Made by a program: the position numbers. Shown piece by piece: positions 52,301 to 58,300 of a stretch of 64,000 nt of DNA. The stretch is from positions 14,839 to 78,838 of the forward strand of contig JAHJKA010000071.1 in NCBI GenBank assembly GCA_018822545.1, in the 5' to 3' direction. Each line of letters begins with the position of its first letter. Position 1 is the first letter of the stretch. Source of the DNA: Pseudomonadota bacterium (GTDB taxonomy: Bacteria; Desulfobacterota; Desulfobulbia; Desulfobulbales; SURF-16).

Positions 52301-55300
52301 ACGGGCCACCATTGGCGGTGATCATCGCCAGATCACTATTTTGTTTCTCGATATCAAGGGTTTTACCGCGATCTCCGAACGTCTGCCGGCCATGGAATTG
52401 GTCTCCACCTTAAACAGTTATTTTGCCGTGCTCACCAAAGTTATCATGGAGCATGACGGCACCGTGGATAAATTCCTGGGTGATGGGCTCATGGCCTATT
52501 GGGGCGCGCCCCTGGCTGTGGAGCACCATGAGGCCAAAGGCGCCGCCTGTATTCTGGCCTTGAAGGAGGCCGTGGCCCGTCTGCTGGAGAGTCATCCAGA
52601 GTTGCCGGAGTTCACCTTCCGGGCCGGCTTAAACAGTGGTGATGTGGTGGCCGGCAATATCGGGGCTCCGGGCCGCAAGATGGAGTACACGGTGATCGGC
52701 GATACCGTTAATCTGGCTGCTCGTCTGGAGGGCACGGCAAAATTTTACGGGGTGGATAATCTGGTCAGTGAGAGCCTTTATGCTGCCACCCGAAACGATT
52801 TTATCTACCGGGAGCTTGACCGGATCAGGGTGGTGGGTAAGAAAATTCCCATTACCATTTATGAACTCCTTGCCTCAGGCAAAGAGGGAGTTGATGACAG
52901 CATCCATAAAATGCTCAGACTGTTTGCCCAGGGGCTTCAGGCGTACCGTGATAAACGTTGGCAGGACGCCACGGAGATTTTTGCGGCCCTTTGTCAGCGC
53001 TATCCAGACGATAAACCCTCCCAGCTTTATCTTGAGCGCTGCCGGCGATACATCGACGAGCCGCCGCCGGAGAACTGGGACACCATTTTTCAACGCAAGG
53101 AAAAATAAGGTCCGATGTCCAAGAATGGAAGGCTAGTTTTTTTAGGCAGAATTGCGGTAACGATGCCCGCGAGGGAAAAAGTATTGGTATATGGAAGAAT
53201 TATTAGCCACGGAATCCACGGGAAAAGTTAAAGAATTTCCCGCGCCTTCCATGGATTTCGTGGCTCACCCTCTTTTTTGAGAGTCATCATCGCCAAATTT
53301 GGTAAGATAAACCTCGTACTGGCTTTGATTTTGGTAAAATTTTCAGACAATGGGGGCCCCATTCTCTGACAGCATCAGGTGTGTGGTAAAAAAAATGTGT
53401 ATTCGACTCTTCATCCTCCTTTTTTTTGTGCTAAGCGGTTGTGCCGGGACCCCGGCTCTGCCGCCTACTTCCGGGATTTCGCGTATCGAGTTTGTCCGGG
53501 AGATTCGTAACGGTCAGCCCCTGGCCCTGGAGGTGGGCCAGGATGAGCGGATTTACATCGTCGAAGAAAACAAGGAGGTGCGTATCCTCCGGCCGGATGG
53601 TTCCATCCTCCTTACCTTGGCCACCAAGATCGGTGAGACCATGCTCCTTCAGGAGCCCACCGACCTCGCTTTTTCCGAGGATTTTCTCTACATCACCGAC
53701 CAGGGCCTGGATCAGGTCAGCATGTTCACCCTGGATGGTAAGTTCCACGATGCCTTTGGGCGTCGGGGTTCTGGCCCCAAGGAGTTCAACAATCCCCAGG
53801 GTATTTTTGTCCATAAGGGTGTGGTCTATGTGGCGGACAGCGGCAATGACCGGATTCAGGTCTTTGGCCCCGATGGTGTCTATCTCCATGCCATTGACGG
53901 CCGGGGTGGTCAGCAGGATGTGCCCTCCCTCCATCGCCTCAGCAGGCCCCGGGACTTGATTATTGATCCGGGCGGCAATGTGGTGGTTATTGATGACGAT
54001 GGCGTTAAGGTCTACGGGCCTTCCGGCATCTTCATGGCTTTGCTGCCTGAGGAAAAAAGTCCCACTGCCCTGGCTCTGGGTCAGGACGGTTTTTTTGTTG
54101 CTGACCGCAAGAGCTACAGTGTCCGCAAGTATAATTTTGCGCGCCAGCTTCTCTTTACCTTTGGCACCAAGGGCGAAGGCCGAGCCCAGTTCCTCAGCCT
54201 GTCTGCTCTCGGTATGGGCAGGGGCGGCCAGGTCTATGTTGCCGACAAGGTGCGGGGTGTGGTGCAGATTTTTCTCACTGAGGAGCAGAACGGCCAAGAT
54301 GCCGAGGCCCTTGCCATTCAGATGCCGCCACCCCATGCCGTCCATTCTTTGATGACCGTCAAGAGTGACAAGAAAATCACCAAAACCGCCTGGGATGGCA
54401 TAGACACCCTGTATGGCGTCAACGGCCAGGAGCTGTTTGCCATCCAAAACGGCAAGATCAGCAGGATCAATGTGGCTGGTTGTGCGCCGGTGGCCGTGGC
54501 CGTGGATGGCCAAGGTGCCCTGTGGCTCGTCGATGATCTCCAGAAAAGGGTGGTCAAGACCGATAGCAGCGGCAAGATTGAGCTTGAATTTGGCGGTCAA
54601 GGTCGGGGGACCGGCAAGTTTAAAAACCCCACGGATCTTGCGGTGTCAAAGGCCGGGATCATCTATGTTGCTGACCCTGCCAATAGCTGGGTGCAGATTT
54701 TTAACAATGAAGGCCTCTTTTTAAATGTTCTCCACCAGGGTGAGCAGGGCATGGTGATGGATGCGCCTGTGGCCCTGGCCTTAAACAGCAAGGACAGCCT
54801 TTATGTCCTTGACCGGGATTTGAAAAAGATTTTTGTCTATTCAAGCCAAGGGAAGCTCCTGACCCAGTTTGGTCAGGAGGGAAACAGGGCCGGGGATTTT
54901 GATGCGCCGGTTGACCTTTTTGCCACGGATACGGAGATTTTTGTGCTGGATGCCGATACCCGGAATATCAAGGTCTTTTCAGAGAAGGGTCAATTTCTGC
55001 GTTCCTTCGGGGCCCATGGTCAGGGCAAGGGTGATTTTGATGAGCCCGGGAGCATTACCGGCGGCGATGCAATCTCCTTTTTTGTCACCGATCTGAAAAA
55101 TGCAACGATCCAGCAGCTGGCAACCCTCTATTCGCCGCAGACTGTCCAAGGTCTTTCTGCCATTGGTGGGATGCGCCAGGTTGAGCTTTCCTGGCAGGCC
55201 AGTCAGGAAGCCTATGTGGAAGGCTACCATCTCTACCGGGCTGAGGGTCAGGATGGTTCCTATCTTCATCTGACCACAGTGGCCACAGAGCGCTATCTCG

Positions 55301-58300
55301 ATAACCAGGTTCAGCCAGGCAAGCCATATTATTACCGAGTTACGGCCCAGGCCAGGGCGGGGAATCAGGGCAAGGCCAGCAAGGAGGCCTTTTCCATCCC
55401 GGAAAAATTTTTCCCCTCGCAACCCCAGAGCTTTGAAGCAGTGGCCCAAGAGTGGCAGGTTGCCCTTTCCTGGCAGGTCAAAGAGCTTGAAAAGCCCTTT
55501 GTTGCCTATTTTCGTGTACTGCGCAAACAACAGGGTGAAGAGTATCGTGAAGTGGCGCAGGTCAAGGAGTCAACCTTTGTGGATAGCGCCCTTGCTGCCG
55601 ACTCCCTCTATCTTTACAACGTTGTCACCGTGGGTATTGACGGGGACCAGAGTCTGCCTGCCGCCCTTGAGGTCAAGACCAAGCTTAACCAGAAGAGCCC
55701 CCTTGACATCGAGATCGGCAATGTTCGCAATATTTTTTCAAACACCTATAAGGTCTATGAAGAAACAGGGCTGGGCACCGTCAGGCTGACCAATAATACC
55801 GGGGTTGCCATCGGTAATATCAATCTGCTTTTTACCATGAAGGAGTACATGGATTTTCCTTCGGAGATTAAGGTGGAGGAGCTGGGTTCAGGGCAAAGCG
55901 TCGAGCTGGTGTTGACACCGGTTTTTAATAATAAGATTCTTACCGTTACAGAGGATACCTCGGTGCAGACGGAATTGCTGGCCTCTTATTACGAAAACAA
56001 TGAGCGCCGGGAGTTCAGTAAGAATGTGGCGGTGAACGTCTACGAAAAGCATCGGATGATGTGGGATGAGCGGCACCGTTTTGCCACCTTTATCACTCCC
56101 AAGGATGCGGTGCTCCTGGAGTTTGTCCGGGCTGCGGTGACTCCGGTTGAGGATGCCGTTGAACACCTGCAGCGCGGCGCTGTTGTCTTTACGGCCTGCA
56201 GCAGACTGGGCATTACCTATCTCCCTGATCCGACAAACCCCTATCAGGTGACCTCCGGCGACACCGATTTTATTGATTACATCCAGTATCCCCGCGAGAC
56301 CCTGCAGCGCAAATCAGGGGATTGTGATGATCTGGTCGCCCTTTATGCCACGGCCCTTGAGAGTGTCGGTATCCAGACCATGGTGGTGGAGGTGCCGGGT
56401 CATATGCTCATGATGTTTGATGCCGGTGTGGCCGGTGAAGAGGGGAGCGATACCATGGACGAACTCTTTATCGTCCATGACGGTCGGATGTGGGTTGCGG
56501 TGGAAACCACCCTGGTGGGCGCTGATTTCATGAAGGCCTGGCAGCAGGGCAGTCAGACCTATTACCAGGCCGAAAAGAATGGCACCCTGTCTTTGATTGA
56601 TCTGCGTCAGGCCTGGCAGATGTTTAAACCTGCCAGTCTGCCCGCCTCCTCCTGGCGTCCGGCCGCCGTGGACCTCAGCGATGACCATTTAGGGGCTGAG
56701 CTTAAAAAATTAAAGAAGATCGCCCTGACCCTTCGTTGTCAGCAGTATTTTGCTCGTCTTGAACAAGACCCGGATGATGTTATGGCCCAGATCCAGATCG
56801 GTATTCTTTATGGCAAGGCGGGCGAGCTTGAGGCTGCCAAAAAGGCCTTTGGCAAGGTGCTCAGTGTCGATACCAAGAATAGTGACGTTTTGAATAATTT
56901 CGGCAATATTTATTTTCTGGAAAAGGATTATCAGGCTGCGGCTAAGATGTACCAGCAAGCGGCAGATCTGGCTGCCGATGATGCCCTCATCCATGTCAAT
57001 CTGGCCAGGAGTTATCTCCTCAGCGGCCAGCGTGATAAGGCCGTGGCTGTTTTTGCCAGGGCCCAGGAGCTTGACCCGGAGGTATCTCGGAAATATCGCA
57101 GTTTAAGTTTGGACCTTGTGCCACCCCTGTAAAAATGGCGCCACGGCACCCTTATTAAGAGAGGAATTACCATGAAGAAAACACTAGGATTGCTCATTGC
57201 TGCGCTGTTTCTGGCCGTGATCGTTCAGGCGGCAGAACCGGTAAAAGACGAGGCGGTTTCCGTGTGGGAAAAGATCAGAAATAAGATTGAAAAGATTACT
57301 CCTAAACAAAAACCAAGCGTTACCACCGCTGTGGGAGGGGTGCGGGGCGCCAAGAGTGACAGCCACGAGCTTTATTGGAAGGGCGAAGAAAAGCCCCTTG
57401 CCATTAGCGCCGAGGAAATTGATCTGTTCAGCTCTGCCTTGCAGTTGGCTGAATCAGGGGCCGGGAGCGAGGCCACGACATCGTTCCAGGATTTTCTAGA
57501 AAAATATCCGCAAAGTCCGTTGGTGGATGATGCCAAAAATGCCTTGGTTGAATTGGCCAAGGAGCAGATGGCTCCCCAGCCTCCCCAGGACTTTTCTCCC
57601 CCTGATCTTCCTGGTTTTAAGCTGGGCATGTAACGTCAAACATACACAGGCATTATTTACCCTCATGGAAGCGCCAGCGCTTTCCATGAGGGTTTTTTAT
57701 TTGTCCGGGACTGACGAATAAAAGTATAAAATCCTGGCTGCCAAATCGCTCCTGTTACCCCCCCTGTTGTCCGCCTCCCCTTGGTCACTACTACAGAAAG
57801 TGGCATCATTTTTCGTCTACCCGCACTACCTGCAGTGCAGTGAGGATTTTTGGGTGAATTTACCCCATTAAGTAGCTGAAATACAGAATGTTTTTGTTGA
57901 CCTGACCCGGTGTTACCAATAAAGTATATTCTTGACTGCAAATAGGTAACATACTGATTTTGCGTATTTATACAAACTGCTTGTTAGGTTAACAGGTGTT
58001 ACGGGGGGGACGGTTTGGGGGATTGGCTGAAGCAGGATATCAGACGACTTACCTATCTGATTCAATACAACCCCAATACCATTATTTTAACCGATCCCGC
58101 CGGCGCCATTGAATATGTAAATGCCGTTTTTACCTCCCACACCGGTTACAGGTCCGAGGAGGTTATTGGTCGGCCCGTTGAGGCTTTAAGCGCCAGCACC
58201 CATGCCTATACTTGGCAGGATATTGTTAACGGCTATGTCTGGGAAGGCGAGCTGGTCAGCATCAAGAAGGATGGCAGCCAGTTTCCGGAACAGGTTTTTG

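Follow-up and report, generated by a model that had tools for sequence, protein, structure and literature searches.

What does a large secreted protein that joins beta-propellers to a transglutaminase-like core do, and do the two genes beside it belong to the answer? This question is raised by a locus in a 64,000-nucleotide stretch of DNA (hereafter the window; contig JAHJKA010000071.1 of assembly GCA_018822545.1, positions 14,839 to 78,838), in which a gene for a protein of 1245 amino acids (aa) lies between a gene for a CHASE2 receptor cyclase and a gene for a small secreted protein, below called the partner. An initial annotation, made from the sequence alone, had treated the two flanking genes as incidental neighbours of the large one. 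Instead, we find that the three genes travel together across phyla, and the reading that we favour, with a probability of roughly 45%, is that they form a single envelope signalling unit in which the large protein, as an active periplasmic enzyme, acts on the partner at a short invariant motif and thereby feeds a CHASE2 adenylate cyclase. What is new here is a known enzyme fold in a new and widespread three-gene context, and the value of the finding lies in the conserved trio and the coupling between motif and catalytic triad rather than in the list of domains. The features of the locus are as follows, with the basis of each assignment in brackets.

50997..53108, + strand: gene for a membrane receptor cyclase with CHASE2 and class III nucleotidyl cyclase domains (Pfam)
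53205..53265, + strand: long imperfect hairpin with a T-run, in the spacer between the cyclase gene and the large gene (folding)
53395..57132, + strand: gene for the 1245-aa NHL/FN3/beta-sandwich/transglutaminase-fold/tetratricopeptide repeat (TPR) protein (open reading frame, Pfam)
53395..53442, + strand: signal peptide with lipobox LSGC, Cys16, Ala at +2 (read from the sequence)
53512..54285, + strand: NHL beta-propeller 1, aa 40-297, six blades detected (Pfam, blade profile)
54352..55122, + strand: NHL beta-propeller 2, aa ~320-576, five blades detected plus space for a divergent sixth (Pfam, blade profile)
55150..55704, + strand: two FN3 domains, aa ~586-680 and ~683-770 (Pfam, self-alignment)
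55702..56064, + strand: predicted beta-sandwich, aa ~770-889, first half of the conserved module (AlphaFold2, Foldseek)
56065..56673, + strand: predicted helical sub-domain and transglutaminase/papain-fold core, aa ~891-1093 (AlphaFold2, Pfam, conservation)
56323-56325, 56401-56403 and 56503-56505, + strand: catalytic codons for Cys977, His1003 and Glu1037, respectively
56683..57117, + strand: C-terminal TPR domain, aa ~1097-1241 (Pfam, AlphaFold2 model)
57172..57633, + strand: gene for the 153-aa secreted partner protein (open reading frame, alignment)
57322..57351, + strand: partner motif T51-T-A-V-G-G-V-R-G-A60 (conservation)
57659..57699, + strand: intrinsic terminator at the end of the unit (folding)

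A small secreted partner with an invariant motif

The partner gene begins 39 nucleotides (nt) after the stop codon of the large gene, and its 153-aa product is deposited at NCBI as MBU0681938.1, a "hypothetical protein". The signal peptide, already recognised by the initial annotation, ends in VQA (followed by AEP), and the mature protein consists of an amphipathic helix, the motif T-T-A-[VT]-[GA]-G-[VI]-R-G-A, the sequence YWKG, one TPR-like hairpin and a variable proline-rich tail. The partner family comprises 436 clusters, and conservation of the motif was counted over the best 120 of these, all of them 127-195 aa long. Gly56, Arg58, Gly59, Tyr68 and Trp69 are present in 120/120 and Ala60 in 118/120 of these clusters, and the lysine of YWK is near-invariant (108/120). 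Within the window, the partner's motif is the sole one of GVRGA type that lies inside a real open reading frame.

The pairing of the two genes is obligate in the loci that we examined, which number 29 with one genome per species. A partner homolog sits directly downstream of the large gene in every one of the 27 loci that have the transglutaminase-TPR part and downstream sequence, and of the two remaining loci one is cut off by the end of its contig and the other belongs to a variant in which the transglutaminase-TPR part is missing. The partner-paired loci come from Proteobacteria, Desulfobacterota, Nitrospirota and Elusimicrobia. When the partner is taken as the starting point, the same trio of genes is recovered, both in the cultured Curvibacter sp. 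PAE-UM (GCA_001432305.1, locus L089) and on a 4.8-Mb contig. Around the large gene, the partner and the CHASE2 cyclase gene, no further gene is broadly conserved among the 29 loci.

Two variants with a defective triad link the motif to the enzyme. In the first (P0038, found on two contigs), Cys, His and Glu are all lost and the partner sequence, minus its signal peptide, forms a C-terminal extension that begins directly behind the TPRs; exactly eight motif residues are deleted from this fused copy, with helix, YWKG and hairpin kept. The fusion argues for a physical association of partner and enzyme, and the joint loss of triad and motif argues that the motif works together with the active site. 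In the second variant (P0037), the cysteine is replaced by serine at a locus that has neither a partner gene nor a CHASE2 gene, so that no CHASE2 gene is found near either of the two triad-defective variants. Short family members that keep an intact triad and have no NHL part also have no partner gene nearby; the downstream genes of four such relatives were tested as diverged partners and are not. The same holds for Nitrospirota relatives of about 1000 aa (P0042, P0046-P0052; L018 603-3620, L092 6001-9042) that consist of NHL, FN3 and beta-sandwich without core and TPRs, and that have no partner and no CHASE2 gene nearby at L018 and L092. The lack of a partner in both the short variants and those without the transglutaminase core implies that the partner is specific to the NHL subfamily and that the module must have other targets elsewhere in the family. 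For the NHL subfamily, we infer that the best candidate substrate is the small partner itself.

Alternatively, the partner may not be cut at all and may instead control the enzyme, as a regulatory subunit or as a pseudo-substrate inhibitor that blocks the active site with its GVRGA loop. The true substrate would then be an envelope protein, lipoprotein or glycan-peptide that is caught by the NHL/FN3 part, with a ligand freeing the plug. We regard this as possible, if on the unlikely side. Pairing and motif-triad co-loss would fit an inhibitor as well as they fit cleavage, and the short relatives that keep the triad without a partner indicate that the module has other substrates. Moreover, the partner is found only where the NHL/FN3 input part exists, and a separate gene for a YWTD propeller beside the enzyme gene of one short relative (see below) suggests that propellers serve the enzyme. 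However, a short exposed loop that contains Val-Arg-Gly and never varies, such as this motif, is what one typically sees at a cleavage site, the examined loci share no further gene that could encode a conserved substrate, and the fold and domain assignments do not indicate a ligand for the propellers.

A transglutaminase-fold module in the large protein

The Cys-His core and C-terminal TPRs described by the initial annotation are all present in the large protein, with the motifs GDCDD (Cys977), PGHM (His1003) and VETT (Glu1037) followed by matches of many TPR models of Pfam at aa ~1104-1237. The Pfam model Transglut_core (PF01841) scores 18.4 bits with the full-length protein (aa 964-1036) and 20.9 bits with the excised module against a cut-off of 23; across the family, it matches 25 of 27 module sequences with a best E-value of 1.6e-6, and DUF553 likewise matches 25/27. 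Two AlphaFold2 models were made, one of aa 765-1245 from a 43-sequence alignment with a mean predicted local distance difference test score (pLDDT) of 92, and one of aa 765-1095 with a pLDDT of 89. Both contain a beta-sandwich (aa ~770-889), three helices (aa ~893-938) and an alpha/beta core, with the TPR helices following after the core. Cys977 opens a helix (213-226 in model numbering), His1003 stands at the start of a strand (239-249) and Glu1037 at the end of the next (267-272), and this modelled placement of Cys, His and Glu matches the arrangement of papain and transglutaminases, in agreement with the triad proposed initially. By contrast, the region of about 170 aa that had been set apart as an unassigned domain does not stand alone: according to the models it is the beta-sandwich plus a helical sub-domain, and forms one module together with the catalytic core.

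Structure comparison with Foldseek supports the same assignment. The module alone retrieves animal transglutaminase TG2 as its best match (E 8.6e-6, probability 0.99, 340-350 aligned columns), then TG3, and the top matches (around E 1e-5, probability 0.99-1.0) also include the putative protease BDI_1141 and yeast PNGase; the model that includes the TPRs retrieves only TPR proteins. A root-mean-square deviation (rmsd) of about 15 Å indicates that sandwich and core each match transglutaminases but do so in a different mutual orientation, and this difference in orientation accounts for the low TM-scores against solved members. Searches of PDB sequences with the module, both as single sequence and as profile, found no relative even at E≤10. 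On the grounds of modelled fold, triad placement and family-level profile matches, the large protein belongs to the transglutaminase-like superfamily.

These structural matches, which are led by animal cross-linking transglutaminases and extend to the N-terminal beta-sandwich, raise the alternative that the large protein is a true transglutaminase or amidase of the envelope, which would trim or cross-link polymers there (for example proteins, peptidoglycan stems or lipoprotein attachments). In this case the partner would be a Tol-Pal adaptor similar to YbgF/CpoB, and the neighbouring cyclase would report the state of the envelope. The partner does have a weak likeness to YbgF and BamD and carries the label "TolA-binding protein" at JGI, its near-invariant YWK lysine could serve as acyl acceptor, and genes for lipid A modification are found upstream in the window. 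Nevertheless, we consider this alternative distinctly unlikely. Membership of the partner in the YbgF/CpoB family (TIGR02795) was rejected at 23.4 bits against a cut-off of 90.1, with a match at aa 83-128 that limits the likeness to one TPR-like hairpin. The alignment of the partner family contains no conserved glutamine that could act as acyl donor, which argues against Gln-Lys cross-linking at the motif. In addition, the triad-less fusion retains YWK and loses GVRGA, suggesting that GVRGA is the element coupled to catalysis, and no Tol-Pal or peptidoglycan gene is among the conserved neighbours.

Linkage to CHASE2 receptors

As the initial annotation had it, the gene upstream encodes a CHASE2 cyclase, with clear matches to the Pfam models CHASE2 (E 5.4e-57, 193.7 bits against a cut-off of 26.3) and Guanylate_cyc (E 6e-24, 85.1 against 21.9). 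Its translation probably begins not at the TTG of 50997 but some 30-40 codons further downstream. The catalytic domain has the motifs FLDIKGFT, DKFLGDG (Lys492) and YTVIGDTVNLAAR (Thr565, within YTVIGDTVN). A Lys/Thr pair in class III cyclases indicates an adenylate cyclase of class IIIb, to which this cyclase is tentatively assigned from its motif positions and not from an alignment to a reference. Because Lys492 and Thr565 occupy the positions that specify ATP in this class, cyclic AMP (cAMP) is the likely output.

Orthologs of this cyclase (39-52% identity) are encoded immediately upstream of the large gene in 12 loci and as a divergent neighbour in two more, mostly on the same strand and within 90 nt of the large gene or overlapping it. 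Counting only loci with at least 2 kb of upstream sequence, the two genes adjoin in 14 of 26, namely in 14/20 outside the Elusimicrobia and in 0/6 of the Elusimicrobia. The Curvibacter isolate (L089) and locus L091 also have the CHASE2 cyclase. Since the flanking genes change between lineages, the genes move as a unit. At a locus of Gallionellaceae (L009), the pair has a CHASE2 cyclase gene upstream and a gene for a CHASE2 Ser/Thr kinase directly downstream (5690-7699 and 12568-15195); what these two receptors have in common is the sensor rather than the output domain, which suggests that the sensor is the part that matters to the pair. In two metagenome-assembled genomes (L010 5906-7911, L011 5796-7678), the upstream CHASE2 cyclase gene is split into several open reading frames, which may be due to frameshift errors in the assembly or to pseudogenisation.

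Alternatively, this linkage may carry no functional meaning, in which case the large protein would serve periplasmic housekeeping with the partner alone, and the cyclase gene would lie beside them by inherited synteny. The lack of CHASE2 in 12/26 loci, including six of six in Elusimicrobia, and the hairpin with T-run between the genes in the window speak for such a scenario. We nonetheless think it quite improbable, given that the adjacency recurs across Betaproteobacteria, Desulfobacterota, Nitrospirota and Acidiferrobacterales with flanks that differ in every lineage, that the genes overlap in some loci, and that the pair of L009 is flanked by two different CHASE2 receptors.

Breadth of the family and conservation of the active site

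We identified about 40 full-length homologs of the large protein (32-95% identity, coverage at least 97%) from Geobacter, Desulfuromonas, Gallionellaceae/Sideroxydans, Comamonadaceae, Nitrospirota and Elusimicrobia. Over 28 aligned orthologs, the module is the best-conserved segment of the protein, with Cys977 kept in 26/28, His1003 in 27/28, Glu1037 in 27/28 and Gln964 in 28/28; the third triad residue is thus glutamate, with aspartate in one ortholog. Among 1.84 billion cluster representatives, a profile search with the module retrieved 4,406 clusters at E≤1e-3, of which 1,739 still match at E≤1e-30, and the Cys-His-Glu triad is kept in ~211/213 of the full modules retrieved. The initial annotation had named loss of the catalytic Cys and His among orthologs as the sign of a pseudo-enzyme or misassignment, and these counts speak for the opposite. 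We therefore see a mere scaffold without activity as very unlikely, with a triad in ~99% of >200 diverse modules and the module as the most conserved part of the protein, even if the Pfam score of the window protein lies under the cut-off and Glu takes the place of Asp in its triad. Judged from sequence conservation, the large protein is probably a conserved and active periplasmic enzyme.

About 150 aa of TPRs always follow C-terminally of the module in its relatives, and the N-terminal part varies: there may be nothing (proteins of ~530 aa), FN3 domains, ankyrin repeats, a beta-helix, NHL repeats with long TPR arrays (~1670 aa) or two NHL propellers with two FN3 domains. The module is therefore the constant part of a large family, and the tandem NHL and FN3 domains are the input or binding part specific to one subfamily. 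A short member of the family at another locus (L084 1673-8969; 682 aa, without NHL) is encoded between a gene for a 1432-aa VWA protein upstream and a gene for a 312-aa YWTD-type propeller lipoprotein downstream, so that the propeller is found here as a gene of its own beside the enzyme gene and not fused to it.

In the window protein, the N-terminal part agrees well with its first description as roughly two six-bladed NHL propellers and two FN3 domains. Pfam NHL (71.5 bits, cut-off 20) and DUF5128, a model of a six-bladed propeller (72.2 bits, cut-off 22.9), both match, and a self-built blade profile counts 11 NHL blades in two groups, one of six (aa 40-297) and one of five (aa 363-576), separated by a gap at aa 298-362 that could hold a twelfth. 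Pfam fn3 matches aa 594-664 (E 7e-7), and the second FN3 domain (aa ~683-770) aligns to the first with an E-value of 5e-5. The NHL protein ScyF of scytonemin biology (NF035926) was rejected as a relative at 157.7 bits against a cut-off of 350, since the match is confined to the repeat region.

The lipobox reads FFVLSGC with Cys16, from which lipidation is predicted for the window protein. It is restricted to the closest relatives, and all remaining orthologs have ordinary signal peptides, which places the common location of the family in the periplasm. Of the earlier view of an envelope-associated lipoprotein enzyme, the secreted enzyme of transglutaminase/papain fold thus stands, and lipidation as a family trait does not; the conserved site of action would be the periplasm, not the cell surface. 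The same view had the propellers recognise a polymer or protein to be cleaved or cross-linked, which may be their role.

As anticipated at the outset, we found no characterised example of this architecture. Database names for the family at NCBI and JGI are generic ("6-bladed beta-propeller", "tetratricopeptide repeat protein"), all matches to curated NCBIfam models are far under their cut-offs, and our literature searches found no description of the architecture of the large protein or of its CHASE2 linkage, nor any paper that describes a linkage of CHASE2 with NHL or transglutaminase proteins. The work thus delimits a large unannotated enzyme family of beta-sandwich, transglutaminase-fold core and TPRs, with environmentally relevant carriers such as Geobacter, Gallionellaceae/Sideroxydans, Nitrospirota and Elusimicrobia.

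Gene boundaries, hairpins and neighbours in the window

The large gene lies in an open reading frame of 53350..57132 on the + strand, in which the ATG at 53395 gives a protein of 1245 aa that starts MCIRLFILLFFVLSGC and has the lipobox LSGC with Ala at +2, as first described. This ATG is the likely start codon because orthologs begin at the equivalent methionine, and an alternative start at 53350 was dropped for the same reason. The protein is identical to NCBI MBU0681937.1, annotated as "6-bladed beta-propeller" and derived from a metagenome-assembled genome of an uncultured proteobacterium. Downstream of the partner gene, the strong terminator of the initial annotation is found again as a hairpin with a bulged stem at 57659-57693 (-24.8 kcal/mol, z -7.4) followed by a U-run. 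The spacer between the cyclase gene and the large gene is unusually long at 286 nt compared to other loci, where it is at most ~90 nt or the genes overlap, and it contains a hairpin at 53205-53265 (-34 kcal/mol, z -5.1) followed by CUCUUUUUUG that is unique within the window. Acting as an internal terminator or attenuator, this hairpin may uncouple the expression of the two genes. Rfam has no match in the intergenic spacers, including the spacer hairpin; its sole match in the window is one tRNA gene (6011-6094, - strand).

In at least five lineages, a gene no more than a few kb away from the cassette encodes a protein of the HD-GYP type, typical of cyclic di-GMP (c-di-GMP) phosphodiesterases (window 58015-60799; L002 6161-7534; L012 3590-5206; L016 16022-17623; L091 13294-14877). 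The one in the window has the architecture REC-DUF3369-HD-GYP and is encoded beside a PAS histidine kinase; those of the other lineages are GAF-HD-GYP proteins. This neighbour may be a downstream cyclic-nucleotide link, or its presence may simply reflect how common such genes are. Upstream of the cassette, the window contains tandem genes of the sulfatase family related to lipid A/lipopolysaccharide (46490-50100), one YejM/LapC-like and one for an EptA-type phosphoethanolamine transferase (634 bits, NF028537). Between this pair and the cassette lie two genes on the minus strand, which we judged by eye to be YchJ/SEC-C-like and GIY-YIG-like. The sulfatase-family pair is not conserved beside the cassette in other loci. 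Further downstream (60925-63323), genes for a zinc-ribbon DUF898 membrane protein and an M48 metallopeptidase with a DUF7092 N-terminal domain follow each other in what looks like an operon pair.

A tentative model of the signalling unit

How could the three products work together? In the source organism, the large protein would be tethered by its predicted lipid anchor, and its NHL/FN3 part might bind an envelope or external ligand that gates the enzyme. The helical and TPR-like part of the partner would dock on the enzyme, probably beside the TPR domain, and its G-[VI]-R-G-A loop would enter the active site, where it would most likely be cleaved rather than bound or otherwise modified; a site with Val at P2 and Arg at P1 would be a plausible one for a peptidase of papain fold. 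Whether the partner is cut, and whether it is bound, would then be read by the periplasmic CHASE2 domain and turned into cAMP by the cyclase.

Several observations weigh against a signalling unit of this kind. The correlation of motif and triad rests on two independent events, P0038 and P0037, and the pattern in short family members could fit a partner that is a subfamily-specific regulator, not a substrate. The window protein's own Transglut_core score is under the curated cut-off, and its acid residue is Glu instead of the usual Asp. Moreover, CHASE2 is not obligatory, since none is found in the six Elusimicrobia loci and in six others, and the strong hairpin with its T-run makes co-transcription of the cyclase gene and the large gene uncertain in the window. 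Within the favoured reading of one signalling unit, the most specific version, in which an NHL/FN3-gated protease cuts the partner at G-V-R-G-A and the processed partner or its release is the direct ligand of CHASE2, appears to us an unlikely though attractive candidate.

CHASE2 is, to our knowledge, a common extracytoplasmic sensor of bacterial cyclases, kinases and c-di-GMP enzymes whose ligands have stayed essentially unknown for some 20 years. In the only CHASE2 cyclases that have been studied, CyaD1, CyaD2 and CyaK of Sinorhizobium meliloti, a signal of protein nature acts via the accessory envelope protein NsrA (PMC13001267). The conserved trio offers a way to test what is detected by CHASE2 sensors, as it consists of three proteins with an invariant motif and a catalytic cysteine, and a cultured carrier of all three genes is available in the Curvibacter isolate. 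If the specific model were true, it would describe an outside-in pathway not described before in which the CHASE2 ligand is a genome-encoded protein fragment, and it would be the first general molecular handle on CHASE2 detection.

Comparison with known systems

The animal transglutaminases TG2, TG3 and factor XIII share with the modelled module an N-terminal beta-sandwich followed by the core, with Cys and His on equivalent elements. They differ in sequence (10-13% identity) and in domain orientation (the rmsd of ~15 Å over 340-350 columns mentioned above), have Asp in place of Glu, and end in C-terminal barrels where the proteins described here have TPRs; the partner also lacks the conserved Gln donor of a cross-linking reaction. 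A bacterial structure, BDI_1141 (PDB 3kd4; Foldseek E 6e-4), is a DUF3857/transglutaminase-like putative protease of Bacteroidetes that is likewise secreted and has a beta-rich domain before a transglutaminase-like core. It has no TPR, NHL, partner or CHASE2, is itself functionally uncharacterised and superimposes poorly.

A link to phage defence was suggested by the NCBIfam model NF058533 ("anti-phage protein ProA"), of which positions 14-314 match aa 795-1082 (55777-56640) at E 4e-9. With 34.4 bits against a cut-off of 1500, the rest of this 1903-position model is unmatched, and the match of the N-terminal ~300 positions suggests that ProA begins with the same sandwich-plus-core module. PADLOC gave no defence-system match, with generic cyclase matches on the neighbouring gene only, and our literature search found no paper on ProA.

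Similar to what is proposed here, CyaD1, CyaD2 and CyaK of S. meliloti are CHASE2 cyclases that need an accessory envelope protein, the outer-membrane protein NsrA, and a protein signal (PMC13001267). Unlike the large protein, NsrA is a beta-barrel and not an enzyme; no small partner is known there, and the proteins have no homology to those described here.

A functional parallel is LapG, reported to be a periplasmic transglutaminase-like cysteine protease that operates in a cyclic-nucleotide circuit and cleaves at a defined short motif (PMC3032545). LapG/DvhG (BTLCP, MEROPS C93) and the large protein have in common the periplasmic location, the transglutaminase/papain fold and a Cys-His-acid triad, which is predicted for the latter. 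Both would have a single dedicated protein as their target, in which they recognise a short stretch of small residues, and both would be part of a cyclic-nucleotide circuit, as we propose for the trio. The relationship does not extend to the sequence, since neither the large protein nor any of the 27 module sequences matches PF06035/BTLCP even at E≤1, and no LapD-like gene is among the conserved neighbours in the 29 loci. LapG itself is a small single-domain enzyme that is controlled by the c-di-GMP receptor LapD and cuts a giant adhesin in a calcium-dependent manner at a di-alanine site, whereas we see a giant enzyme, a tiny candidate substrate with a G-V-R-G-A motif and a CHASE2 cyclase as candidate partner receptor. 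The direction of signalling also differs, being inside-out for LapG and probably outside-in for the trio described here.

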